Positions 8,690 through 50,718 of a DNA stretch of 64,000 nucleotides are shown one piece after another. The position numbers and the translations under genes are program-made. The notes under the pieces are model-generated. The model did no database searches. It saw only the letters and a program-made list of their open reading frames with translations, and had not been told where the DNA came from. Origin of the DNA: a phage. The stretch lies in the NCBI GenBank assembly GCA_024672315.1, contig GCA_024672315.1_4714.1; one strand, given 5' to 3'. Within the stretch, counting starts at the first letter, position 1. Every line of letters begins with the position of its first letter.

Positions 8690-11476
8690 TTATCTTACGT
8701 TATTGCTATTCTGCTGTTCGCTGAACCAACCGTACACCTTGAGATCGGTACCGTATTTCAATGCGATATACGCATTCAATGCAGCACAGAACAAAGACAC
8801 GAATGCCCATATCAGCGAAGGATCAACATCTTCCGTTACCACCGGGAGAGTATTATCCGGTTCCCACGATGGAGAACTGTCCATGAACGTCGTGTACCAT
8901 TCCCGCCGTTGTTCTTCAGTGGTAAAGTCGCTATGAGGTTCCAACGCTTCTTTTGCCAGACGTCGATATTCGAACACATACGTTGCGAAAGCCGATGAGT
9001 TACCAGATTCGCCTTCATAGTTCGGATCCACCGCACAACAGAGTTCTGTGGAATCTAACAAAGCAATCGCTTGTGTGATGCTGTCGGCAGTGCCTGCACC
9101 ATAGAGCTCGATAGACCGCGAAAGCTTTTCACAGAACGTATTTAACGCGGCAGGATTGGACACCTGAAGGTCAAGGCCTAATGTCCACGGATAGTTACTG
9201 AACACGCCCGTAAACCGCGGCAGGACACCCAACAGATGTTGTCCGATTACAGCACGGTTATAAACAGCCCGGTTATAGACTTGAAACGCAGCCTCCAAGG
9301 CTTGGTTATAATGACGACGAAGTTCGTCACGCGAGTTGCGGAATCTGTTTGCCGCAAGACTCGTGGCTGCGACGCTACAAACATCGTAATTGGTGGACGA
9401 GAGCACAGTTTCGTTAAGATCGAACGATTCCTGTTTCAACGATCCGCTAACCGCTGCTGCTTCGCTGTTTGCTTTATCGACAACTGTACTCAAAGCGTTG
9501 ATGTAACGCTTAGCCCGGACTTCCAGCCATTGTGCGATACCGAGAACATCCACAGCGGCTTTAGCAAGGTCACGTGCGTTCACGATTTCGTTCTTCAATG
9601 CCCCTAAACCTTTATTCTCAGGCGAAGAGGCTTGTTGACGAATCATGCTGTTCAACATGGTAAGCAGATTATCCAACTCATGTCCACTGACCTTGTTACG
9701 TGCATCGGTAACTGGTCCTTGCAGGAATTTACGACAACCATCGTTGTATCGAATCAGTTTGTCCACATCGATAGATTCGTTCGTGGATTCCTTGAACTGA
9801 TCCTTCAATTCTTCACGGTAGTCATGGATTTCACTTGCGAGATTATCGATAGTGATACCATCGTGTCCAAGAAGAACTTTATTGAAGTTACCTTTCTCGA
9901 ATGCAAGAGCAAGACCTTCACGAATCTTAGCGAGTTTATCCTGATCGAGTTCGCGACCGTTCGATAGCTCTTTCACTTCCGAGCTGATTAGTGCCGCAAC
10001 GTTACCCAGATTGTCGGTAACGCCTTTGAATGTTCCCGACCAGATCGTTCCTGCTTCAGCATATTTCGCAATGGTCTGAATACCGACGGTGTGCAGCGAC
10101 GCTAAACGTTTCTTCGTGCCTTCGGTAAGCAGAGCGTCTTTAGCTCGCGTAAGCTGGCTGTTATTCGCTTCCGCCTGCTGAATCGCCGCTTTCGCACTTC
10201 CATTACGCCAGCTCTTAACCAGCCAATCGACCAAACGTTTTAGGATGTTGACGGTGTATTCCATCGTCCGCCGTAACGTTTCCCACGCGCTTTCTGCGGT
10301 ATAGATGCCGTACCCTTCCTGCACGAGATCGGTACGTGTGTATCCGTCGGCCGCTTCGATTTCTTCTTGCGTTTTATCCCAAAGCTCTTCGCTACGAACA
10401 GCAGTAGCGGTTTCAGATACCGACATAACAAGCTCAGCAACAGCTTCAGCGTAAGTCAGTACGGTACGCACACATTGCACTAACATGCGCTGGTAAACGA
10501 TACGTGCGTTTTGCAGACGTGCGATAACCGCTAAATAACCGATGTTATCAAGATTTTCATCGGTTTGAGCAGATTCAACGCGTTCTAACAGTTGTTTAAC
10601 TAGCGCCGCTGTTTCTGGGTAATCGTTCACGACGTCACGCATGATTCGTGATGCGAAAACCGCAGTACCTAAAACGGTGAGAAGTGTTTTACCGTCCCAT
10701 TCTTTCGGTGCCGCTACCGATTCAGCAGGGATGAGATTTCCCGCTTGGTCGAAGTACGGCATAAGGACATTGATATCAGTCGACGGAACAGCAGTAATTG
10801 CGTTGTACTCTTCATCCACGCCATCGTTGCCAGACGGTTGTAATGCGAGCGCTTGTTCGAGGATTTTGCGGTCAACAGCGTAAAGCGCCGACAGAGCCTG
10901 TGTTACCGCAACCAGATCAACGATCGGCGACCAGAGCTGTGCGAGCTTACCTTCGTATTTCTGTACAGCGATAGCAAGGTCTTCTTTTACGTCTGGATGA
11001 TCGATCAAACCACCCAATGTTTCATGGATGGCAGAAAAACGTTCAGAATGCGCTTGAGTCAATGCGGTAAAATCGTCAACGTACGACGCATTTTCTTCAA
11101 GACGCGTAAGTTCCTGCTCCAGAAGATCTTTTACTTGCGTGGCGGATGCGTTTCTCAACTGTTCCCCGATAATCGCGATGGCTTTATCGACAACACGGCA
11201 GGCTTCATTGAAACCGGTCGTTGAAGGTAACTCGGTCCATAATGCCAGCGGCTTACCTTCCATTGCGTCAGGAAGGGAATATGACAGCATTGCTAGTTGT
11301 TGACGTGATACCTGTTTGTCACGATGTAATGTTTCTTTCAACGCCAGAAGCTCATCAAGACCCACGCTGCTAGGGATCGTGGGATGTGATACGGCGTTGA
11401 TATTTCCTGTCAATGACTCAAGAACCAATAAACCATTTTCAGCGGAAGATAACCCTGCTTTAAGGTATTTGTTCAT
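8690..11476 (-). CDS. hypothetical large alpha-helical protein (928 aa)
   Basis: Long ORF, helical/coiled-coil-like composition; convergent with 5634..8627; GGAG RBS sits directly 3' of a perfect 12-bp hairpin. Confidence 0.85.
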   Translation of the reverse strand: MNKYLKAGLSSAENGLLVLESLTGNINAVSHPTIPSSVGLDELLALKETLHRDKQVSRQQLAMLSYSLPDAMEGKPLALWTELPSTTGFNEACRVVDKAIAIIGEQLRNASATQVKDLLEQELTRLEENASYVDDFTALTQAHSERFSAIHETLGGLIDHPDVKEDLAIAVQKYEGKLAQLWSPIVDLVAVTQALSALYAVDRKILEQALALQPSGNDGVDEEYNAITAVPSTDINVLMPYFDQAGNLIPAESVAAPKEWDGKTLLTVLGTAVFASRIMRDVVNDYPETAALVKQLLERVESAQTDENLDNIGYLAVIARLQNARIVYQRMLVQCVRTVLTYAEAVAELVMSVSETATAVRSEELWDKTQEEIEAADGYTRTDLVQEGYGIYTAESAWETLRRTMEYTVNILKRLVDWLVKSWRNGSAKAAIQQAEANNSQLTRAKDALLTEGTKKRLASLHTVGIQTIAKYAEAGTIWSGTFKGVTDNLGNVAALISSEVKELSNGRELDQDKLAKIREGLALAFEKGNFNKVLLGHDGITIDNLASEIHDYREELKDQFKESTNESIDVDKLIRYNDGCRKFLQGPVTDARNKVSGHELDNLLTMLNSMIRQQASSPENKGLGALKNEIVNARDLAKAAVDVLGIAQWLEVRAKRYINALSTVVDKANSEAAAVSGSLKQESFDLNETVLSSTNYDVCSVAATSLAANRFRNSRDELRRHYNQALEAAFQVYNRAVYNRAVIGQHLLGVLPRFTGVFSNYPWTLGLDLQVSNPAALNTFCEKLSRSIELYGAGTADSITQAIALLDSTELCCAVDPNYEGESGNSSAFATYVFEYRRLAKEALEPHSDFTTEEQRREWYTTFMDSSPSWEPDNTLPVVTEDVDPSLIWAFVSLFCAALNAYIALKYGTDLKVYGWFSEQQNSNNVR

Positions 11477-11557: not shown

Positions 11558-14350
11558 TTACGCTAATTTACCGAAACCGGCTTTCTGTAGTTTCTCGTTG
11601 ATCAGTTTTGCTTCAGCGAAAACATAATCACGATACGCAGTGACTAATCCATCCACCCGTGAACGCAAGGCTTCTTCGAAGCTATACCACGCAGCGATTT
11701 CACGAATCTGTGCGTTGATATAATCAACGGTTGAGCGAAGCTCGGTTGCGTTTTCTTGCGGGATGGCTTTCACCTGGCGAGCAACGTCATTTAAACGACG
11801 GAACTGTGTTTCGATTTCTTTAAACTTACTGTCGGCAAGTTTGCTGAATTCGTCACCGGAACGGGTAAATAACAGATAGCTGTTGCCGTCAAGTGCGGTT
11901 GCTAACTGCTGAAGTACGTTGGTGTCCGGATACACAGGAGTACCGCTTTGCAGTACTTTCTCACCGAATTCCGCGAAGTCCTTCGGCGGTAAGTGTGCAG
12001 ACGTTGTTAACTCGTTGAAACGGAAAGTCAGCGAATTATCATACAGCATCCGGTACGCTTCCATACCCTGTTTCATAGTACCGGCCAGGTTAGCCAGACG
12101 CGGAGCAATCTCGCCTTCTTTAGCGCGTTTCTGGTCTTCTAACGCCCCTTCGAGTTCTTTACACTGGTCGTTCAGATACACGATACGATCGGGACGCAGA
12201 CGACGCATCTCACGAAGAATAGTATCCAGCTTACCTTCCTGGAAATAACCTAACGTTAATGACGTACACGCTTGCTGAAGACGATCGAACACCGGTAAGG
12301 TCACCATCTCCTTACGGATACCATCAACAATCGCAGAAACAGCCGAAAGTTTCTGTTCGGTGGTTAATGGAACGTCAGAGACCGACTTGCTGGGCGCACC
12401 AACAACGTTACGCATTGCGTCGGTATCCTCGGTTTTATCAACCTCTTTACGAACATGCTCATCAGGAACATAAACGTTCGCGTTACGTTTCGCCTGCTTG
12501 ATGGCGTCGTTGGCCGCTTTTTCGGTGGCTGCTACGCTATCAGCACGTTTCTTCAAGAGTTCAATAATCCAGAGCAACAGACGACGAATCGCAGTATAGG
12601 CCGTCGTGATGATGACACCGATAACAGCCATCTTCATGATACCGAACGATTCCATGGTCGGCTCTAATGCCTGGTCTGGCATATACCGTTCACGCAGTTC
12701 CAGATAGATCTGCTCATCTGGTTTGCTGATCTCACCACGATGCGAAGTCCGATAGATGGCTTCGTCAATCTCAACAAGATCTTTGCGTGCCTGACGATCG
12801 GATTCTGTTAAGTAAGCACAACCGGATACATCATCTTCGAAGCTTAAGAATTTGAAGAAGTCGCTGACATCGATCTTGATCTTCTTCGTTTCATTGTCAA
12901 CGTTAATGAAATCCGTTTTACGAGACTGCTGTTGAATCTTAATATCCTTTATCGGTTTAAGCGCTTTGTCTTTTAATGCCTGCATGATCTGTTTCCAGCT
13001 GGCATCGCGTTCAAGAACAAGGAAATAGTTCTTGAGTTCGAATGCGCGATAGCGGGCAACAAGTTGTTCTACCTGGACATGAGCGAGTTGTACGTCCATC
13101 AGCCAACGCGACAGCGCAGAAACCAAACGGCTATACGCAAGCAGCGTCTGGTACGTCAGCTTCATGTGTTTCTCGTAGAGCTCGATGTCTCCGCCCTGGA
13201 TGTCGGCTGTCGGGTTCATTTCCTTCGTTGCTTTGAAGACTTGTTCGGCTTCATTCAGCATCTGCTCGAACTTGACTTCATTGAACGCGTTGAATGGTTC
13301 GGCCAGTTCGTTCATCCGATCGTGCAGTTCGCGAACCCAAGCTTCTTTGTGATTACGAATGACCGCATCAGCGTGGAGTTCGGTTTGATGTTTCTGTACC
13401 CATTCTTCAATGATATCCGCAGCTGCAACAACGCCCGTGTTGTCAGAAATCAATGGAATGACGTTAGAGAGCGTACCCGCACATGCTGGTGTTTTCCAAT
13501 GATCGTTAAGCGTGTTGCGGAACGTAATGATGTCCGTCATAGACGTAGTGATATCGAGGAACGTGTTACCGTTACGACTCATGCTTGTGATGTTTGTGGC
13601 AAACGTCTTTTGTTGTTCTACAACGAATGGAATCAACGCCATCAACCAATCAGCAATACATTTTGCTTTTTCTTTCAGGTTTTTGTCGGCGATTTCTTTG
13701 AGATTAATTGCGCCGCCGTAACCTGCAAGTTCGTTATACACATCGTTCAAGGTCATCTGCGCGTCAAGCATTTCTTTGAAACGCGGATAATCTTCCCCTA
13801 ACGCATCGATGATATCCTGGATAACGTCGTCGGTTGTAGCGATAAATTTCTTCGTGTCGACTTTAGATTTCCAGATTATTTTCACCGCTTCTTTCATAAC
13901 GGTGAACATGATCTGCCAAATACGCTTAATAAGTTCCCAGACTTTCTTCGCACCATCGACAAACAGTTTAGAGACCTTGGCAACGAATCCTTCCTGCACC
14001 AATTCAACGCCGTTACGTGATGGGATTTCCGTGAAGAAAGCATCCGGCAGTTGTTTCGGGAATGCGTCACCAAGACGCATACGTAGTTCCGGTACATCAG
14101 CACGAGAAATACCGCGTGTTACTAATTGTTCGTGAAGACGAACGTTTTCTTCACCGGCAGCCACGAATTCGTCAACATCGAAGGAGACCATTGTTTCCTG
14201 ATCTTCGGTGGTAACGACGCTTGAACCATCGCTGGTCTGGATGTCCTCGTCAGGGAACGCCATGAGCATACCGTGACGCATTTCAACCACTCCGTAATCG
14301 GTTGCTAAACCGAATTCGTTGTGATCGGGGGTAATAACTGGAATACTCAT
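11558..14350 (-). CDS. hypothetical large alpha-helical protein (930 aa) with a hydrophobic segment; tape-measure- or ejection-protein-like composition
   Basis: Long ORF; hydrophobic stretch MAVIGVIITTAYTAIRRLLLWII; Lys/Glu-rich helical regions; assignment by composition only. Confidence 0.85.
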   Translation of the reverse strand: MSIPVITPDHNEFGLATDYGVVEMRHGMLMAFPDEDIQTSDGSSVVTTEDQETMVSFDVDEFVAAGEENVRLHEQLVTRGISRADVPELRMRLGDAFPKQLPDAFFTEIPSRNGVELVQEGFVAKVSKLFVDGAKKVWELIKRIWQIMFTVMKEAVKIIWKSKVDTKKFIATTDDVIQDIIDALGEDYPRFKEMLDAQMTLNDVYNELAGYGGAINLKEIADKNLKEKAKCIADWLMALIPFVVEQQKTFATNITSMSRNGNTFLDITTSMTDIITFRNTLNDHWKTPACAGTLSNVIPLISDNTGVVAAADIIEEWVQKHQTELHADAVIRNHKEAWVRELHDRMNELAEPFNAFNEVKFEQMLNEAEQVFKATKEMNPTADIQGGDIELYEKHMKLTYQTLLAYSRLVSALSRWLMDVQLAHVQVEQLVARYRAFELKNYFLVLERDASWKQIMQALKDKALKPIKDIKIQQQSRKTDFINVDNETKKIKIDVSDFFKFLSFEDDVSGCAYLTESDRQARKDLVEIDEAIYRTSHRGEISKPDEQIYLELRERYMPDQALEPTMESFGIMKMAVIGVIITTAYTAIRRLLLWIIELLKKRADSVAATEKAANDAIKQAKRNANVYVPDEHVRKEVDKTEDTDAMRNVVGAPSKSVSDVPLTTEQKLSAVSAIVDGIRKEMVTLPVFDRLQQACTSLTLGYFQEGKLDTILREMRRLRPDRIVYLNDQCKELEGALEDQKRAKEGEIAPRLANLAGTMKQGMEAYRMLYDNSLTFRFNELTTSAHLPPKDFAEFGEKVLQSGTPVYPDTNVLQQLATALDGNSYLLFTRSGDEFSKLADSKFKEIETQFRRLNDVARQVKAIPQENATELRSTVDYINAQIREIAAWYSFEEALRSRVDGLVTAYRDYVFAEAKLINEKLQKAGFGKLA

Positions 14351-16351: not shown

Positions 16352-17851
16352 ATGAGCGAACAAGAACGAAAACCTAAGAAGAAACTGCTCGGTATTCAAT
16401 GTCGACACATCAGTTATAACGAAGCGAACGATGGCAGCAAGAACGACCTCATGATCGCAAAAGAGATCATGTTCTTTGATGATAACACACAAGCGACGAA
16501 TCTTCGCTTCTTCGAGAATTACAAACGTCCGTTTTGGGTGACGGTAGAGAGTAAACGCAAGAACAAATATAAAAAGGAAAGCGAGAAGCTCTCGCACGTG
16601 CGTCGCTACGATGTCCGTCAAAGTGAACTGGTTGAAAAGATCAGTTCGGTGCTTTATAAAAGACGTGCTGATGATAACACCCGTCTACAGCAGCTTGCAC
16701 GGAGTCCATACCTCTATGGCACGGACGTTAGCGCCAGCTGTTATTTAAAAACTCAGTACAACACAAAATGGCCGGAATACGTCGATAAATTACCCGCTTC
16801 CATTGCCTGTTTCGATATCGAAACCGACGTTGTCCATGGACACGGTAAGATCGTCTGTATGTCTATTACAATGGGATACAATGCGATACTTTGCTATACC
16901 AAGGACTTCGTTGGTCATATTCCGAATGCCATTGAGAAAACCCATGAGAAGATTCGATATTACCTGGCCGAACGTCTGAACACCAAAGAAGATCCTCACG
17001 CGTTCGAAAAATATCAGTACGATGTGCGAATCGTAGAAAGTCCGGCACAAGCGGTCATCCAATGCATGCAGAAGGTTCACGAATGGCAGCCGGATTATCT
17101 CCTTGGCTGGAATATCGCGTTCGATATTCCGCGCATGCTCCAGGCACTGAACGAAGAAGGGTATCGTCCCGAGGATGTTTTCTCCGATCCTCGTGTACCA
17201 CCTAAATATCGCATTGCTCGCTGGGTACCACCGAAGACCGACAAGGTATCTGCTTCAGGGCGTAAAACCAACCTTACCCTTGAGCAAACCTGGCCGATGT
17301 TTTATACGATGGCTACGTATCAGGTTATGGATGCGATGTGTGGTTATAAGTTCGTTCGTTTAGGAAGACCGGATGAGGGACGCTATTCACTCGATGCGGT
17401 ATTAGAGCGAAATAAATGCCATACGAAATTAAAAGCAATTCCTGGTACAGAAGGGTTCACGGAGCTCGCCTGGCACGAAGAGATGCAAACGAACCATCAA
17501 ATCGACTACGGCGTATATAACCTTTGGGATAACCAGGGTATCGAGGCGTTGGACCAGAAAACAAAAGACTATTCGATGACCATCCCTATTCGTTTAGCGG
17601 CGTCGGATTTGAAAGATTTCAGTTCTAACCCTAAACGTATCTGCGATAAACTTTTCTTCGTTTATCTTAACCGTGGGGAAGTCATGGGATGCACCGCCGA
17701 CGACATGACCCAGGAAGAAGATAAGTGGGTTATCTCACGAACCGGACATATCGTCACATTGCCGTGCGATCTCATGGCGGACAACGGCATCCATCTCTTC
17801 TGGGATATGCCTAATTTAAGGAGCTATATTCGATTATTTGTTGCGGATTAA
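16352..17851 (+). CDS. DEDDy-type 3'-5' exonuclease protein resembling the proofreading domain of family-B DNA polymerases (no polymerase domain)
   Basis: 499 aa; Exo I-like FDIETD, Exo II-like WNIAFDIP, Exo III-like YNLWD in the right order; none of the polymerase motifs (DxxSLYPS, KxxxNSxYG, YGDTDS) in this ORF or downstream. Confidence 0.75.
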   Translation: MSEQERKPKKKLLGIQCRHISYNEANDGSKNDLMIAKEIMFFDDNTQATNLRFFENYKRPFWVTVESKRKNKYKKESEKLSHVRRYDVRQSELVEKISSVLYKRRADDNTRLQQLARSPYLYGTDVSASCYLKTQYNTKWPEYVDKLPASIACFDIETDVVHGHGKIVCMSITMGYNAILCYTKDFVGHIPNAIEKTHEKIRYYLAERLNTKEDPHAFEKYQYDVRIVESPAQAVIQCMQKVHEWQPDYLLGWNIAFDIPRMLQALNEEGYRPEDVFSDPRVPPKYRIARWVPPKTDKVSASGRKTNLTLEQTWPMFYTMATYQVMDAMCGYKFVRLGRPDEGRYSLDAVLERNKCHTKLKAIPGTEGFTELAWHEEMQTNHQIDYGVYNLWDNQGIEALDQKTKDYSMTIPIRLAASDLKDFSSNPKRICDKLFFVYLNRGEVMGCTADDMTQEEDKWVISRTGHIVTLPCDLMADNGIHLFWDMPNLRSYIRLFVAD

Positions 17852-17940: not shown

Positions 17941-19131
17941 ATGGAAAAATCTATACATACTCAAACTGGAACTATTGACTATCGCGATTCAGCATATTTG
18001 CCGTACACAAATCATCGTTATCGTATATTTGAAGATGGCGAGTTGTACGACTATAAAGAAGATAGGGTCGTCCCTTACGAAGTTGTAGACGGTGTCCCTT
18101 ATGTTGAAATCGATTGGTATAGAGGCATTGGAAAATACGATCTCGGTATGATCATTCTCACCGTTCTTGAACGGGTTGCTTTACCAGATCACCTTTACGA
18201 TGAAATTGAATCGTTGTTTGTGGACGGAGATCCGACTAACTTTTCGTATAGCAATCACATCTACCGTTTCCGTAATGGGCCGTTAGAAGTTGAGGGATTC
18301 GAAGGTTATTGTTATATTCCGTTTGCATCTCGTTACGCGATAAATAAAGAAGGACATTGTATTAGTCTTCTTTCGTTGGATCCTATCACGTGGACGAAAA
18401 CGGTTCAGCAAGGCACACGTCTTGGCGGATACGCTTATCGTAAAGTGGTTCCTGATAGCGGGTTTACACCGCAGTTGTATCGTCACCGAGCTATCATGTT
18501 AGCGTTTACGAGATATGATGCTAACGTTGTGAACTTAACCGTAAATCATAAAAACGGAATTAAAGGTGACGATTGGTTTGACAACCTCGAATGGGCGACA
18601 TATGCCGAGAACAATCAACATGCTCGTATGGCAGGGTTGTGTATAGGTACGTCAAAACCTGTTTTGGTTTATGATTACCGTGCACGAATCGAACGTCGTT
18701 TTAATAGTATCGCAGAAGCGGAACGTGCTTATCCGTACGTACCGAAAGGACGTTTCAAATGGTGGGTAAACAATCCCCCGAAACGTATCCCAGAATGCGA
18801 TTTATACATCAAGTTTGCCACGGACAATACGCCTTGGCCAGAGTGGAAACTTGGAGAAGATCGTCGTGTCGAGGACACCGATGGTCGCGGTATTCTCGCT
18901 ATTAATAAAGAGACGAACGAACGACATGTGTTTCCATCAGTAACTGCTGCCGCAAATGCGTTAGGAATCTCCTGGATTACCGTAAGACGTCATTGCGATC
19001 GTCGTGCAGTACCTACGAAACAGCCTTGGTGTTTTCGTTATGCTGATGATATTGCCGCTATGCCCGATTTCGATGTTAGTAAATTAGTTCCTAAGAAGAA
19101 GCGTGTATTTAATGTTCCATTAGAACGATAA
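17941..19131 (+). CDS. HNH homing endonuclease
   Basis: 396 aa; HNH signature VNHKNGIKGDDWFDNLEWATYAENNQHA; GAGG RBS; immediately downstream of the exonuclease gene. Confidence 0.8.
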   Translation: MEKSIHTQTGTIDYRDSAYLPYTNHRYRIFEDGELYDYKEDRVVPYEVVDGVPYVEIDWYRGIGKYDLGMIILTVLERVALPDHLYDEIESLFVDGDPTNFSYSNHIYRFRNGPLEVEGFEGYCYIPFASRYAINKEGHCISLLSLDPITWTKTVQQGTRLGGYAYRKVVPDSGFTPQLYRHRAIMLAFTRYDANVVNLTVNHKNGIKGDDWFDNLEWATYAENNQHARMAGLCIGTSKPVLVYDYRARIERRFNSIAEAERAYPYVPKGRFKWWVNNPPKRIPECDLYIKFATDNTPWPEWKLGEDRRVEDTDGRGILAINKETNERHVFPSVTAAANALGISWITVRRHCDRRAVPTKQPWCFRYADDIAAMPDFDVSKLVPKKKRVFNVPLER

Positions 19132-24888: not shown

Positions 24889-24915
24889 AAAAAAAGAGGT
24901 GGGGCGAACCCCACC
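24889..24915 (-). terminator. rho-independent terminator candidate
   Basis: Hairpin GGTGGGG cgaa CCCCACC; on the minus strand it is followed by a T7 run (plus-strand aaaaaaag just upstream); directly downstream of 24941..25366. Confidence 0.7.
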
Positions 24916-26197: not shown

Positions 26198-26824
26198 TTA
26201 TGCAAAGCGACGCATGTAACCTGCCAGATAGTTACGCGTATCGAAGTAGGCAATTTCAGGAATTGCGATATTAAGGTCGATAGCGCGGATTTCAACTTGG
26301 CGACGGCTTTCATCATAGATCGCATCCATCAGACGCAGTACTGTCAGGAAAGCCATGCGGGTATGGTAGTCCAGCGGCATGTTGTCGATACCGCGATACA
26401 GATAACGGTTTGCATTAAATGCCCCTTCGCTGTTATCTTTCCAGATCTTCAGAATATCAGCAAAGGCGGTGCGGAAAACCTCAGGATTATCCACATCCAG
26501 TAACGCACGGAAAGCAGACATTAAAGACCGCTGATGACGGATCAACGACTGCGGTGTTTGCGGCATGGTCGGACCCATTTCTTCCGCGTATTTCTGGAAC
26601 GGGGCAACCAGGGTTGCGGCACGAGAAGCCACGATAGAAACAGCTGGCGATTCTTTCGCCGCTGGTTTCGCAGGCTTTTCTTCAACAACGGTTTCCTTCT
26701 TCTCAACAGCGACCGTTTCCGGCTGTGCTACAACATCACTAACCGGAGCATCTGCAACGGTGGTTTCTACCGCAGTAATCTCCTCGTCCATTTTTGCAGA
26801 ACGTTGGTCTTTATTCTTGCTCAT
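26198..26824 (-). CDS. hypothetical protein
   Basis: 208-aa ORF, acidic low-complexity N-terminus; directly downstream of the RNAP beta-prime-like gene. Confidence 0.7.
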   Translation of the reverse strand: MSKNKDQRSAKMDEEITAVETTVADAPVSDVVAQPETVAVEKKETVVEEKPAKPAAKESPAVSIVASRAATLVAPFQKYAEEMGPTMPQTPQSLIRHQRSLMSAFRALLDVDNPEVFRTAFADILKIWKDNSEGAFNANRYLYRGIDNMPLDYHTRMAFLTVLRLMDAIYDESRRQVEIRAIDLNIAIPEIAYFDTRNYLAGYMRRFA

Positions 26825-26849: not shown

Positions 26850-28151
26850 TTAACTAATATAAAGTTCAGGATCGTAAGGCGCTAACGATACACTGGCGTT
26901 ATGCATTGCTTTCATCATAGTGTTCATGAAAACGTTGTTTACACCGGTGATCTCTGCCCCGATCGCATCTGGGGTTGGAGCCATCGCGTTACCGCAACAG
27001 GTAGCACAGTATTCCAATGGGCCTGCTTTACAACGTTGAGGATCACGTAACTTGATGGTTTGTCCTTCCAAGGAAGCGAGTAATTCAGCATCGATAAGTT
27101 TAAGAGCCGCGCCGTCGATCATGTAACGGCCGACAAGCAGCTTATCTTTGATGTGGTCGCGGTTTACCGTGAAAAGAATATGCTCGTGGGTACCGCAGTC
27201 GTCCATCGTGATTTTAAGGTTCTGTGTCGCACGTTGTGATTCTTTCGCCGTCTGTCCAGCTAAAGCGGTCAACGCACCACGTGAGAACGAACCGGCACGT
27301 GCACTGTTGTTGTACTCCGCCCAATGGTCGACACGCATCCCTTCGGCCAGGCTGTGTGTGATAACGTTACGTTTACCGGGGTCAACGAAGTCGGCTTCAA
27401 CCCCCATCATGATGTGCGTTTTCTTTCGAGTATTACCGAAACTCTTGCCTGGGTTAATATAGAACCCTTCCGACTCATCGCCCTTAAAGGATTCCTTATC
27501 CATTTTGGTTAGCGTGGCTTCGAGTTTGATCAGTTCTTCAGGCGTGAACTTACCTTCCTCTTGTAAGCGCGCCAACTCTTTATCACGATAGGCAATAATA
27601 TCATCATCGACCGTTAACGCTTTATCACTCATTGACGGGACAATTAAACGGTTGATAGCGGTTAATGCGCTGATATTGTTGGTGAATTTCTTCACTTCGC
27701 TTGCGTACAACGGACCAATAGGACGTTCATTAGGATCGGGTATTCCCTCTTCGGGATCGTCCGCTACGCGTGGCGCAATCAGTGACTCCAGTGTGCCGCT
27801 GGTCAACCGTCCTGCCTGATATTCAATCTGAATACCGAAAGCATCATAAAGGACGTACATATTGAACAACGCTTCACCGAAGGTTGTGGTGGTTGTGTTC
27901 TTAACCGACGGTAAATCGCCAGGTGCGAGCTCCAACGGCTCCCAGAAACTCAACAAGGGTTTTGTTGGCTCGGTTTCCCATTGGTGTTCTTCACCGTCGA
28001 TGGTAACCGTAACGACGTTACCTTGACGACGTAATTTAGGCTGATACTTCTCAGCGCCGCCTTCCGTAAAAGCAAATGCGTCGTTAATCCATTCAAGATA
28101 TCGGTAGTGCCCTTCACGCATCGCGTAAAGGAAATATTCACGAGGTGTCAT
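26850..28151 (-). CDS. multisubunit RNA polymerase beta-prime-like subunit, middle fragment (bridge helix through Zn-binding segment)
   Basis: 433 aa; ..EGMRVDHWAEYNNSARAGSFSRGALTALAGQTAKESQRATQNL.., TMDDCGTHEH and RCKAGPLEYCATCCGNAM...DAIG...MMKAMHN align by eye with E. coli beta-prime ..[36 protein letters not shown].., TEDDCGTHEG and SCDTDFGVCAHCYG...EAIG...LTMRTFH (recalled from memory); the NADFDGD catalytic motif is absent, so the subunit is split. Confidence 0.75.
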   Translation of the reverse strand: MTPREYFLYAMREGHYRYLEWINDAFAFTEGGAEKYQPKLRRQGNVVTVTIDGEEHQWETEPTKPLLSFWEPLELAPGDLPSVKNTTTTTFGEALFNMYVLYDAFGIQIEYQAGRLTSGTLESLIAPRVADDPEEGIPDPNERPIGPLYASEVKKFTNNISALTAINRLIVPSMSDKALTVDDDIIAYRDKELARLQEEGKFTPEELIKLEATLTKMDKESFKGDESEGFYINPGKSFGNTRKKTHIMMGVEADFVDPGKRNVITHSLAEGMRVDHWAEYNNSARAGSFSRGALTALAGQTAKESQRATQNLKITMDDCGTHEHILFTVNRDHIKDKLLVGRYMIDGAALKLIDAELLASLEGQTIKLRDPQRCKAGPLEYCATCCGNAMAPTPDAIGAEITGVNNVFMNTMMKAMHNASVSLAPYDPELYIS

Positions 28152-28164
28152 GTAACAACTCCTT

Positions 28165-29037
28165 TTAAACCCGGGTCAGGTCACCGTGACGTGAAACGAA
28201 CTCTGATAACGCTCGGGTTGCTTCTTTGGATTCTTCAGCCATCGGGAAGTTTGCGGTAATAAGTTCTCGTAAGACAGGGACGAGTTCGTTATCTTCGAGA
28301 TCGGAAGCTAAAGCGAATGCGATCAGTTCTTGGGTGTATGCATACGGTTGCTGACGTAATGTAGTAAGCTGATCCCGACACTGCGCCATCAGCAGGTCCA
28401 GTGGAACCGCTATCGTACCCCCTTCATCAATATACTGGCTGAACACCGGTGGGAACGCATCACTGATGACACGAATACGTCGACGGATGCGATCAGGAAT
28501 CTGGATGTTTTCCTCGTCGACTACGTTCTCGCTGTCTTTCTCCAGCTTCTTGGTCAGCACCTGCTGAATGCGTGGAAGCAAGCTTGAATGCACGAAACTG
28601 ATTAATGGGGTTACATTCGCAGCATCGACGCCGTAAATGTGTCGCGTACATTCTGCTAACGCTTCAGCTGCGGTGTAGTCTTCATCTTCAACGATAGCGA
28701 GTAGAAAAGCGGTATCGTCGTGTGTTTCCAGGTCTAATAACGTAGACGCCAGCGCGTGAAGATATTTCAGGCTATCCAGAGATAGTTGCCCTTCGTTAAT
28801 TCGGATCCCGAAGGCAAGCAATTGTTGTTTATAAAGTTCGATACATCCGTTTGTTAAAATGATATCTAATTCGTTTAAATCGTATTGTTCCCCAGCACCC
28901 GACAACATCGTACTGCAGAACGTTTCCAGTTGTTCACATTTAAAATCTTGGTATAAACGATGCATGCAGTGCTGTAACAGCGTACGCCTTGTTTCAGGGA
29001 TCTTACCTTCTAACAAAGCCAAGACGGAATCAATCAT
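28165..29037 (-). CDS. hypothetical protein
   Basis: ORF track starts at GTG 29043; ATG at residue 3 has GGAG RBS; divergent from the plus-strand block starting at 29134. Confidence 0.7.
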   Translation of the reverse strand: MIDSVLALLEGKIPETRRTLLQHCMHRLYQDFKCEQLETFCSTMLSGAGEQYDLNELDIILTNGCIELYKQQLLAFGIRINEGQLSLDSLKYLHALASTLLDLETHDDTAFLLAIVEDEDYTAAEALAECTRHIYGVDAANVTPLISFVHSSLLPRIQQVLTKKLEKDSENVVDEENIQIPDRIRRRIRVISDAFPPVFSQYIDEGGTIAVPLDLLMAQCRDQLTTLRQQPYAYTQELIAFALASDLEDNELVPVLRELITANFPMAEESKEATRALSEFVSRHGDLTRV

Positions 29038-50327: not shown

Positions 50328-50498
50328 TTACTTTTTCTGATAAAGCGATGATTCAAATTTTAGAAACATCACTAATGCGAATGCGAGTAATAACGCACGT
50401 ACCCACATACCTCCTTGATAACTGTTGTACAACATAAAGACCAGAGCGATGCCGCCCATATGCAGGCGGCACTTATCGAACAGTGTTGGTTTATACAT
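50328..50498 (-). CDS. hypothetical small membrane protein (not in ORF track; coordinates approximate)
   Basis: Hand-translated ~56 aa (MYKPTLFDKCRLHMGGIALVFMLYNSYQGGMWVRALLLAFALVMFLKFESSLYQKK); ATG overlaps the stop of 50491..50718 (ATGTATAA); no clear SD. Confidence 0.3.
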   Translation of the reverse strand: MYKPTLFDKCRLHMGGIALVFMLYNSYQGGMWVRALLLAFALVMFLKFESSLYQKK

Positions 50499-50718
50499 AA
50501 GTGATTAAACGTTGAATGATTTTTACTTTGCCTTTACCTGGACCTTTCTTGCGGCGATTCAACAGACGGATACGGGTTCGAGTTACAACGTCGCCGTCAT
50601 AATCAGCCTGGAACTGTGATAAAAAAGCAGGCTGTATCGGATCGACACCAGGATTGCTATAGAAAGGATTGAGACCTAAAAGAGGGTTAACTGGAATCAT
50701 CGCATTGTCCTTACTCAA
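50491..50718 (-). CDS. hypothetical protein
   Basis: 75-aa ORF abutting the stop of 50719..51069. Confidence 0.55.
   Translation of the reverse strand: MSKDNAMIPVNPLLGLNPFYSNPGVDPIQPAFLSQFQADYDGDVVTRTRIRLLNRRKKGPGKGKVKIIQRLITYV

Follow-up and report, generated by a model that had tools for sequence, protein, structure and literature searches.

The locus and its transcription unit

The window, by which we mean the whole 64,000-nucleotide stretch of phage DNA analysed here (NCBI GenBank assembly GCA_024672315.1, contig GCA_024672315.1_4714.1), is ~94% identical to Escherichia phage Goslar over 86% of its length, indicating that it comes from a sister phage rather than from Goslar itself. The features of the locus, in the direction of transcription, are:

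28165..29037, minus strand: co-oriented upstream gene of 290 aa, its product homologous to the head protein gp79 of phiKZ (BLASTP E 9e-6; PHROG 5038)
28159..28164, minus strand: Shine-Dalgarno sequence AAGGAG, 7 nt 5' of the ATG (read from the sequence)
26850..28151, minus strand: CDS of 433 aa, assigned to the virion RNA polymerase (vRNAP) as its Mid-beta-prime; orthologous to Goslar gp78, phiKZ gp80 and SPN3US gp42
27333..28151, minus strand: residues 1-273, region following the DPBB (double-psi beta-barrel) in cellular beta-prime (profile, hhalign, Foldseek)
27225..27332, minus strand: residues 274-309, bridge helix (phmmer alignment and helix in the model)
26991..27203, minus strand: residues 317-387, predicted four-cysteine zinc-site module (hhalign register)
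26898..26963, minus strand: residues 397-418, first trigger-loop helix (hhalign; helix in the model)
26198..26824, minus strand: co-oriented downstream gene, counterpart of Goslar gp77, a capsid decorator (by position relative to Goslar)
24898..24915, minus strand: terminator-like hairpin GGTGGGG-TTCG-CCCCACC followed by a T run (Goslar terminator at the equivalent place)

The ORF at 26850..28151 is a real gene of 433 aa with an ATG start, and the upstream gene has its stop codon at 28165-28167, adjoining the Shine-Dalgarno sequence of this ORF. Its translation contains every motif quoted in a first-pass annotation of this DNA, namely GALTALAGQTAKESQRATQNL at residues 292-312, DDCGTHEH at 317-324, CATCCG at 382-387, DAIG at 395-398 and MMKAMHN at 412-418. 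The capsid-decorator role of gp77 comes from a Goslar cryo-EM preprint, and its counterpart here serves as operon context only. The hairpin at 24898..24915 probably ends a transcription unit running from gp79 to gp75. Pfam returned nothing significant for the two neighbouring genes. A scan for sigma-70 promoters performed no better than on shuffled sequence, as expected of a phage that transcribes its genes without the host polymerase.

Homology to cellular beta-prime

The 433-aa product had been read in the first pass as a split beta-prime-like fragment of a phage-encoded multisubunit RNA polymerase, and profile, hhalign and fold searches agree with this. With the single ORF sequence, phmmer matched E. 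coli beta-prime; bacterial beta-prime was matched at E 5.7e-7 by a 7-sequence profile and at E 1.3e-9 by a 107-member family profile. The latter also matched the beta-prime-C subunit of the non-virion polymerase (nvRNAP) of AR9 (7s00_D, E 2.6e-8) and phiKZ gp74 (7ogp_D, E 1.6e-6). Alignment of profiles by hhalign against E. coli beta-prime 470-1000 gave E 6.6e-7 over 391 columns (query 10-430 on 473-954), and the cysteine and bridge-helix residues, on whose alignment the first-pass reading had been staked, are in register. The profile check proposed alongside that reading succeeded with the family profile but not with Pfam, which assigned no family to the ORF, including the RNA_pol_Rpb1 models, even at E<=10. 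The sequence is too divergent for Pfam, and the relationship comes to light only with a family profile. Since the Pfam Rpb1 models miss the product, a HMMER search against Pfam taken alone would have led to a wrong rejection of the claim.

At the level of residues, query 263-329 aligns without gaps to E. coli beta-prime 758-824, from the bridge helix to DDCG (phmmer). R285, T295 and G299 of the bridge helix pair with E. coli R780, T790 and G794, while hhalign pairs C319, C374, C382 and C385 with C814, C888, C895 and C898, and M413, K414 and H417 with M932, R933 and H936. TTFG at 89-92 pairs with E. coli TTVG at 572-575, the register being of low confidence before residue ~89, and in the family profile positions 96-337 align to Streptomyces beta-prime 659-901. 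The E. coli strings quoted in the first-pass annotation are correct (MG1655 rpoC: DDCGTHE at 812, CAHCYG at 895, EAIGV at 913, TMRTFH at 931). The order of motifs that it claimed to share with E. coli holds, as does the spacing from the bridge helix to DDCG, but not the spacing from DDCG to CxxC (65 residues in the ORF vs 83 in E. coli) or from CxxC to (D/E)AIG (13 vs 18). From AIG to M(K/R)xxH the two proteins differ by one residue.

NADFDGD and the region beyond the start of the trigger loop had been reported as missing, and they are: a regular-expression search found no DFDGD-type motif in the ORF, and the protein ends 16 residues past the trigger-loop histidine. The lack of the NADFDGD barrel is expected of a split subunit. 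The sole DxDGD-type match in the window, ADYDGD near 50604 on the minus strand, falls in a 75-aa ORF and was rejected as chance.

An AlphaFold (AF2) model of the product (pLDDT 93.5, pTM 0.82) places residues 274-309 in one 36-residue helix, and residues 397-418 are likewise helical. Each of the best 50 PDB matches to this model (Foldseek) was a chain of beta-prime or of AR9 nvRNAP beta-prime-C, with E values down to 1.5e-10, alignments of ~400 of the 433 residues and a query-normalised TM of about 0.5. The bridge helix, the four cysteines, the M-R/K-x-x-H helix and the fold of beta-prime are present, and the similarity of the ORF to beta-prime is far beyond chance. The four-cysteine module is a predicted zinc site equivalent to the second zinc site of beta-prime.

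Conservation, orthology and rival readings

A word-indexed homologue search returned 9 matches only, and an exhaustive profile search was needed to reveal the family. At E<1e-30 it comprises no fewer than 935 representatives, almost all of them 420-455 aa long and aligned from end to end. Among 150 representatives, bridge-helix residues R291, T295 and G299 are invariant, C319, C374, C382 and C385 are each present in all, and so is H417; M413 is kept in 129. The protein ends exactly 16 residues past this invariant histidine in 144 of the 150, and we therefore attribute the truncation to a conserved split, not to decay. The sole conserved part of DDCGTHE is D318, C319 and G320: position 322 is mostly K, T or R across the family, and E323 is also variable. 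Given this variability, and since H322 is Q in Goslar, the exact DDCGTHE identity with E. coli is partly a coincidence. The N-terminal extensions of ~150 aa found in a few family members are not gp79 fusions and have no Pfam match.

The organisation had been likened to that of phiKZ-like jumbo phages, and homologues in such phages bear this out. Goslar gp78 (HOV27_gp078, YP_009820763.1) is 99.8% identical in amino acid sequence, the same protein save for H322Q, with the same neighbours and orientation. Its gene differs from that of the window at 55 of 1302 nucleotides, with 54 synonymous changes vs 1 non-synonymous (omega 0.0045). PHROG 2962 covers residues 1-432 of 433 (E 6e-106), phiKZ gp80 aligns over its full length at 31% identity (BLASTP, E 1e-49), and the homologues in the SPN3US-like phages SPFM19 and JN03 are ~30% identical across their full length of 431 aa; this identity and the same 431-aa length tie the ORF to SPN3US gp42.

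We conclude, with a probability of roughly 95%, that the ORF encodes Mid-beta-prime (also beta-prime-M), a piece of the vRNAP's split beta-prime-like subunit, in a Goslar-like chimallivirus. The identity rests on homology, residue register, fold, conserved ends, purifying selection and gene context, and it was already known, having been published for Goslar gp78 as Mid-beta-prime of the vRNAP. The first reading is refined in that the polymerase is the virion and not the non-virion enzyme, and the fragment is the middle one of three beta-prime pieces.

The profile matches to AR9 7s00_D and phiKZ gp74 7ogp_D, together with a secondary match to PHROG 3015 (E 4e-11), would also fit a beta-prime fragment of the nvRNAP that is produced early and taken up into the phage nucleus. 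This reading is very unlikely: pairwise BLASTP found no similarity to the nvRNAP paralogue gp74, as against E 1e-49 for gp80, and nvRNAP beta-prime-C, at 631-677 aa, runs past the trigger loop, whereas the family of this ORF stops 16 residues after the histidine. Moreover, Goslar gp78 has been detected in virions, and the gene is flanked by a head-protein gene and a capsid-decorator gene. It is likewise highly improbable that the ORF is what decay or truncation has left of an acquired rpoC, or that it encodes a head protein whose polymerase function has been lost. The absence of a catalytic aspartate motif, the stop within the trigger loop and the lack of a Pfam match are what such a remnant might look like, and phiKZ gp80 carries the annotation 'structural head protein'. 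However, an omega of 0.0045 and the conservation of both ends in at least 935 representatives argue against decay, and the positions invariant in 150 diverse members are the key positions of cellular enzymes (bridge-helix R/T/G, four cysteines, trigger-loop histidine). In addition, the genetics of SPN3US tie gp42 to the other polymerase subunits (PMC5105663). Finally, the partly coincidental nature of the DDCGTHE identity might point to a chance resemblance of motifs in an unrelated phage protein, but profile, profile-profile and fold searches all give beta-prime with the motifs in register, and we regard this explanation as refuted, its probability being negligible.

Partner subunits, proposed assembly and comparison with known systems

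As Mid-beta-prime of the vRNAP, the fragment would act together with other polypeptides. The first-pass annotation had suggested a search for the complementary fragments, which found none among the window's 22 ORFs of 250 aa or more (PHROG scans) but did locate them elsewhere in the Goslar genome. The RefSeq annotation of Goslar 58-130 kb, the stretch matching the window, names no further RNA polymerase gene. The Goslar partners are gp196, gp205, gp207 and gp210, and an FDGD-containing piece adjoins gp205; splicing of an intron between gp205 and a downstream exon would restore the DFDGD motif. Pfam on these four subunits returned nothing significant. All four, and gp78, were found in Goslar virions by mass spectrometry, where gp78 appears among the vRNAP subunits and is put at some 14-33 copies by estimate (bioRxiv 10.64898/2026.04.21.720040). 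A scheme of five polypeptides for the vRNAP is laid out in PMC7598289. In SPN3US, gp42 is named beta-prime-M and is gone from the heads of a beta-N amber mutant together with the other vRNAP subunits (PMC5105663).

In the mechanism that we propose, the catalytic double-psi beta-barrel would reside on a separate N-beta-prime polypeptide, and the present fragment, which begins beyond the barrel and ends at the tip of the trigger loop, would contribute the post-barrel region, the bridge helix, the trigger loop's first helix and the second zinc site. The remaining beta-prime would be supplied by a separate protein of ~236 aa (Goslar gp210, phiKZ gp176, SPN3US gp244). Goslar gp210 is homologous to phiKZ gp176, and the lengths of 433 and 236 aa sum to 669 aa, vs 677 aa for beta-prime-C of the phiKZ nvRNAP. 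When gp210 was tried as the missing C-terminal part of beta-prime, a profile of 13 phage sequences aligned without significance in hhalign, both to E. coli beta-prime 1100-1407 (E 0.35) and to the C-terminus of gp74 (E 0.49). IMG/VR yielded nothing but near-identical copies of gp210, and a word-indexed search 3 close relatives.

The fragment would join N-beta-prime, N-beta and C-beta in a polymerase without alpha and omega subunits. This vRNAP would be made late in infection, enter the capsid in a few tens of copies and be injected with the DNA, to transcribe early genes independently of the host polymerase. Virion location, five-subunit composition and early-gene role are taken over from the literature, the virion location having been seen in Goslar, and would apply here by analogy. 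Because no jumbo-phage vRNAP had been purified as of a 2020 review (PMC7598289) and the best 50 PDB fold matches include no virion-RNAP chain, we infer subunit contacts and catalytic roles by homology. The bridge helix and trigger helix would act as in cellular enzymes, with the trigger loop completed in trans.

It is conceivable, though rather doubtful, that the gp79-like gene encodes an unrecognised partner of the chimallivirus vRNAP, such as a factor for assembly, packaging or promoter specificity. In each of the eight chimallivirus lineages checked, it lies directly upstream of the gene for Mid-beta-prime, and its product occurs in Goslar virions, by mass spectrometry, at a copy number near that of gp78 (bioRxiv 10.64898/2026.04.21.720040). 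However, AR9, which also has a vRNAP, carries no such neighbour beside its Mid-beta-prime gene, and a fold search with the gp79-like product gave generic helical bundles only, with nothing sigma-like. Nor is it among the six proteins that the available part of PMC5105663 names as lost from SPN3US heads without beta-N, where the homologue is possibly a non-virion protein.

The Mid-beta-prime gene shows that the window belongs to a jumbo phage of the nucleus-forming kind (Chimalliviridae), which carries a transcription enzyme of its own into the cell. Scientifically, nothing is new here beyond what has been published for Goslar, phiKZ and SPN3US. The value lies in annotation, as the protein is missed by Pfam and labelled in GenBank as hypothetical or 'beta subunit', the correct name being vRNAP beta-prime, middle fragment. 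Two details may help structural work on the vRNAP, namely the chain break 16 residues past the histidine and the gp79-like gene upstream in chimalliviruses.

Among known systems, E. coli RpoC ~520-950 has the same bridge helix, zinc site, first trigger-loop helix and fold. In contrast to RpoC, the phage product is a stand-alone protein of 433 aa with ~17-19% identity, and it lacks the clamp, the NADFDGD DPBB, the second trigger helix, the C-terminal regions and the SI3 insertion; its chain presumably stops about where E. coli beta-prime carries SI3. PhiKZ gp80 (449 aa) and SPN3US gp42 (431 aa) share its length class, conserved residues and upstream gp79-like gene, but both are only ~30% identical, and in gp80 the trigger-helix lysine is one position off (MSKMH vs MKAMH here). 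Beta-prime-C of the nvRNAP (phiKZ gp74, 7OGP chain D; AR9, 7S00 chain D) has a homologous post-DPBB core. Unlike the ORF product, it is a single chain of 631-677 aa that includes the entire trigger loop as well as the C-terminus, and it is not packaged in virions.

The largest subunit is likewise divided after the DPBB in cyanobacteria (RpoC1/RpoC2) and archaea (A'/A''), and the phage split has been equated with the cyanobacterial one (PMC7598289). By alignment offsets, which are rough, the start of cyanobacterial RpoC2 would fall near query residue ~100 and not at residue 1. The second split, inside the trigger loop, is not known from cyanobacteria or archaea. Their largest subunits are divided into two pieces, whereas the phage beta-prime is divided into three.

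Fragment of the beta-prime subunit and its conserved end

The 433-aa open reading frame claimed by the first-pass annotation exists on the minus strand of the window, and all five peptide strings that had been quoted from it were found in its translation.

26850..28151, minus strand: Mid-beta-prime (beta-prime-M, the middle of three beta-prime pieces), 433 aa, ATG start (ORF translation)

Reading of the sequence places an AAGGAG ribosome-binding site 7 nt 5' of the ATG and a gap of 13 nt between the gene and the preceding gene's stop codon. The E. coli strings given for comparison were also correct: in the MG1655 rpoC translation, DDCGTHE starts at 812, CAHCYG at 895, EAIGV at 913 and TMRTFH at 931.

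A Pfam search of the protein yielded no match; PHROG 2962 ('RNA polymerase beta subunit') was matched end to end (E 6e-106). Used as a single-sequence query against PDB sequences, the protein gave weak bacterial beta-prime matches (E 3e-3), with an ungapped alignment of query 263-329 to E. coli 758-824, which comprises the bridge helix and DDCG. The best beta-prime match improved to E 5.7e-7 with a 7-sequence profile and to E 1.3e-9 with a 107-sequence profile, and the profile search proposed in the annotation recovered beta-prime. Against the non-virion RNA polymerase (nvRNAP), this 107-sequence profile scored 2.6e-8 with AR9 chain D and 1.6e-6 with phiKZ gp74. Alignment by hhalign of the profile to E. 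coli beta-prime 470-1000 (probability 92%, E 6.6e-7) extended over 391 columns, query 10-430 against E. coli 473-954, and the Cys and bridge-helix residues, on whose register the earlier claim depended, remained aligned.

Residues paired by hhalign (query, E. coli beta-prime)
TTFG 89-92, TTVG 572-575
C319, C814
C374, C888
C382, C895
C385, C898
M413, M932
K414, R933
H417, H936

The likeness of DDCGTHEH to the E. coli sequence holds in part: D318-C319-G320 are truly conserved, but the letter-for-letter identity is partly luck, because relatives mostly have K, T or R at position 322, and 135 of 150 have G at position 324.

In an AlphaFold2 model built from the 107-sequence alignment (pLDDT 93.5, pTM 0.82), predicted helices at 274-309 (a single one of 36 residues) and 397-418 represent the bridge helix and the first trigger helix, respectively. 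The top 50 Foldseek matches in the PDB were all beta-prime chains or AR9 nvRNAP beta-prime-C (best E 1.5e-10; alignments of ~400 columns).

An exhaustive profile search over 1.84 billion representatives returned 2366 relatives at E<=1e-3, of which 935 reached E<=1e-30. Nearly all of the best 150 were 420-455 aa long and matched from first to last residue, and in 144 of these 150 the chain ended exactly 16 residues past the invariant His. Truncation of the beta-prime fragment is a conserved split. Invariant in the 107-sequence alignment were W21, G250, R291, T295, G299, C319, C374, C382, C385 and H417. Four of the best 150 relatives, all from metagenomes (P0019, P0032, P0039 and P0102), carry an extra N-terminal domain of ~145-157 aa with a shared 'YHGS...AVFAT' pattern. 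These domains showed no relation to gp79 and no Pfam match, and could be real fusions or gene-calling artefacts.

Relation to Goslar and the upstream gp79-like gene

By tblastn, the protein was 99.8% identical to that of Escherichia phage Goslar, and ~310 other jumbo-phage records were matched at 21-33% identity, with hosts including Pseudomonas, Erwinia, Salmonella, Vibrio and Serratia. An identical protein occurs on a 238-kb public contig. Megablast of the 20 kb around the gene matched Goslar only (93.9% identity, 86% of the query), and we therefore regard the window as a sister of Goslar; by gene content, Goslar gp58-gp126 is roughly its counterpart. The two copies of the gene differ at 55 nucleotides with one amino acid change, H322Q, which falls within the DDCGTHEH string (omega = 0.0045). 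Two adjacent ~930-aa ORFs, 8690..11476 (-) and 11558..14350 (-), are counterparts of Goslar gp64 and gp65; neither had a PHROG match at E<=1e-5, and a Goslar cryo-EM preprint includes gp65 in the capsid vertex-binding complex.

The Mid-beta-prime gene lies within a minus-strand unit, gp79-gp78-gp77-gp76-gp75, whose gp77 product decorates the capsid in the Goslar structure (Goslar cryo-EM preprint). Such a setting fits a gene that is expressed late, together with virion genes.

24898-24915, minus strand: strong terminator hairpin at the end of the gp79-gp75 unit (sequence)
28165..29037, minus strand: gp79-like head-protein gene, 290 aa, phiKZ gp79 family, PHROG 5038

gp79-family genes in stretches from other chimallivirus relatives
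L005, 8182-9039
L021, 1630-2514
L022, 640-1497
L023, 654-1514
L024, 613-1491
L025, 681-1508
L026, 401-1300

Each of the eight chimallivirus lineages inspected (the window, phiKZ, JN03, pEa_SNUABM_54, Psa21, RP12, BONAISHI and FishSpeaker) has an ORF of 275-300 aa directly 5' of the Mid-beta-prime gene and in the same orientation. In these lineages it is the first gene past a divergent junction and is spaced from Mid-beta-prime by <=13 nt or overlaps it by <=17 nt. The gene is fast-evolving (omega 0.13 against Goslar) and its product all-alpha; identity of the lineages' proteins to the window copy is only 15-21%, and the homology of that copy to phiKZ gp79 ('structural head protein') is weak (E 9e-6). 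An AF2 model of the window copy (pLDDT 87) is all-alpha with two lobes; in BFVD it matched uncharacterised full-length proteins from 16 chimalliviruses (E down to 7e-11), which supports a single family. Could this protein belong to the polymerase? Goslar virions contain an estimated 10-24 copies of gp79, similar to gp78 (2026 preprint supplementary table). Against the PDB, the model matched generic helical bundles only, with no sigma-like or other informative fold, and our literature search found no paper on its function. AR9 has no gp79-like gene upstream of its Mid-beta-prime homologue, so in this small sample the pairing looks specific to chimalliviruses and not universal to the virion RNA polymerase (vRNAP). 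A direct vRNAP role is possible but unlikely.

Partner subunits and the virion polymerase

BLASTP against phiKZ-like RNAP subunits, as the first-pass annotation had suggested, gave a full-length match to phiKZ gp80 (31% identity, E 1e-49) and no similarity to phiKZ gp74 (nvRNAP beta-prime-C). The proposed split beta-prime with phiKZ-like organisation stands, refined to the virion enzyme and to the middle of three beta-prime pieces. The complementary fragments expected with it were not found among window ORFs of at least 250 aa: PHROG scans of the other ORFs of this size revealed no further RNAP fragment in the window, and RefSeq annotation of Goslar 58-130 kb names no other RNAP gene. The partners lie elsewhere in Goslar, the vRNAP genes being 115-140 kb distant. 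An 'ADYDGD' string in a 75-aa ORF of the window, 50491..50718 (-), resembles the RNAP catalytic motif; we attribute it to chance, as the ORF is too small for a double-psi beta-barrel.

Partner genes in Goslar stretches, outside the window
L007 575-754 and 2757-4265 (NC_048170.1 211574-211753 and 213756-215264), minus strand: 59-codon piece and gp205
L004 32656-33366, minus strand: gp210, 236 aa, accepted C-beta-prime, phiKZ gp176/SPN3US gp244 family

Goslar gp207 (1448 aa) is covered along its whole length by a match to PHROG 3148 ('RNA polymerase beta subunit'), contains no DFDGD motif and, by size, corresponds to SPN3US beta-N gp241 (1401 aa). The annotated end of gp205 (502 aa; vRNAP N-beta-prime) reads '...LAGLGGDQGKANK...' and is followed by the HNH gene gp206, an annotated group I intron RNA and a 59-codon piece, which starts 'FDGDTVSVNV...' and stops just ahead of the gp207 start. 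Because this piece lies downstream of the intron, the intron seems to split the catalytic DFDGD of gp205 and splicing to restore it; if so, the deposited gp205 CDS would be truncated. In the window, an HNH/NUMOD homing-endonuclease gene, 17941..19131 (+), lies directly 3' of a family B DNA polymerase fragment, 16352..17851 (+), the same arrangement as Goslar gp68-gp69 and a further case in these phages of a mobile endonuclease beside a split gene for replication or transcription.

Goslar gp210 is homologous to phiKZ gp176 (28.6% identity, E 7e-26); it was found in 275 phage records, whose hosts span the same range as those of gp78. The combined length of 433 + 236 = 669 aa compares with 677 aa for nvRNAP gp74. 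Profile comparisons of its family were not significant with E. coli beta-prime 1100-1407 (E 0.35) or the phiKZ gp74 C-terminus (E 0.49), and Thomas et al. gave E 0.05 on the relation to the beta-prime C-terminus. The C-beta-prime assignment thus draws its support from genetics, proteomics and length rather than from strong sequence similarity.

Mid-beta-prime carries the bridge helix, a zinc site and the first trigger helix, and residues important in cellular enzymes are kept invariant in its family. By homology, the bridge helix would border the active site and take part in translocation, and the trigger helix, which bears M413, K414 and H417, would close over the incoming nucleotide. Another chain, most probably gp210, would have to supply the second trigger helix, so that the trigger loop would be built from two polypeptides with a residue-exact break point. 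According to the literature, packaging follows assembly of the five vRNAP pieces, the capsid carries a few tens of copies, and the enzyme is injected into the early-infection vesicle, where early genes are transcribed without the host enzyme.

The identification as Mid-beta-prime is supported and already known, since the SPN3US, phiKZ and Goslar literature names these vRNAP subunits. In PMC5105663, SPN3US gp42 (431 aa) is named 'beta-prime-M', and knockout of beta-N (gp241) yields heads without gp42, gp218, gp240 and gp244. A 2020 review lists N-beta-prime, Mid-beta-prime, C-beta-prime, N-beta and C-beta as the vRNAP core (PMC7598289), and a January 2026 paper, after Thomas et al. 2016, gives gp178, gp149, gp180, gp80 and gp176 for phiKZ (PMC12809450). 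In Goslar, a 2026 virion preprint names gp78, gp196, gp205, gp207 and gp210 as the five subunits, all detected by MS, with an estimated 14-33 copies of gp078 per virion (supplementary table).
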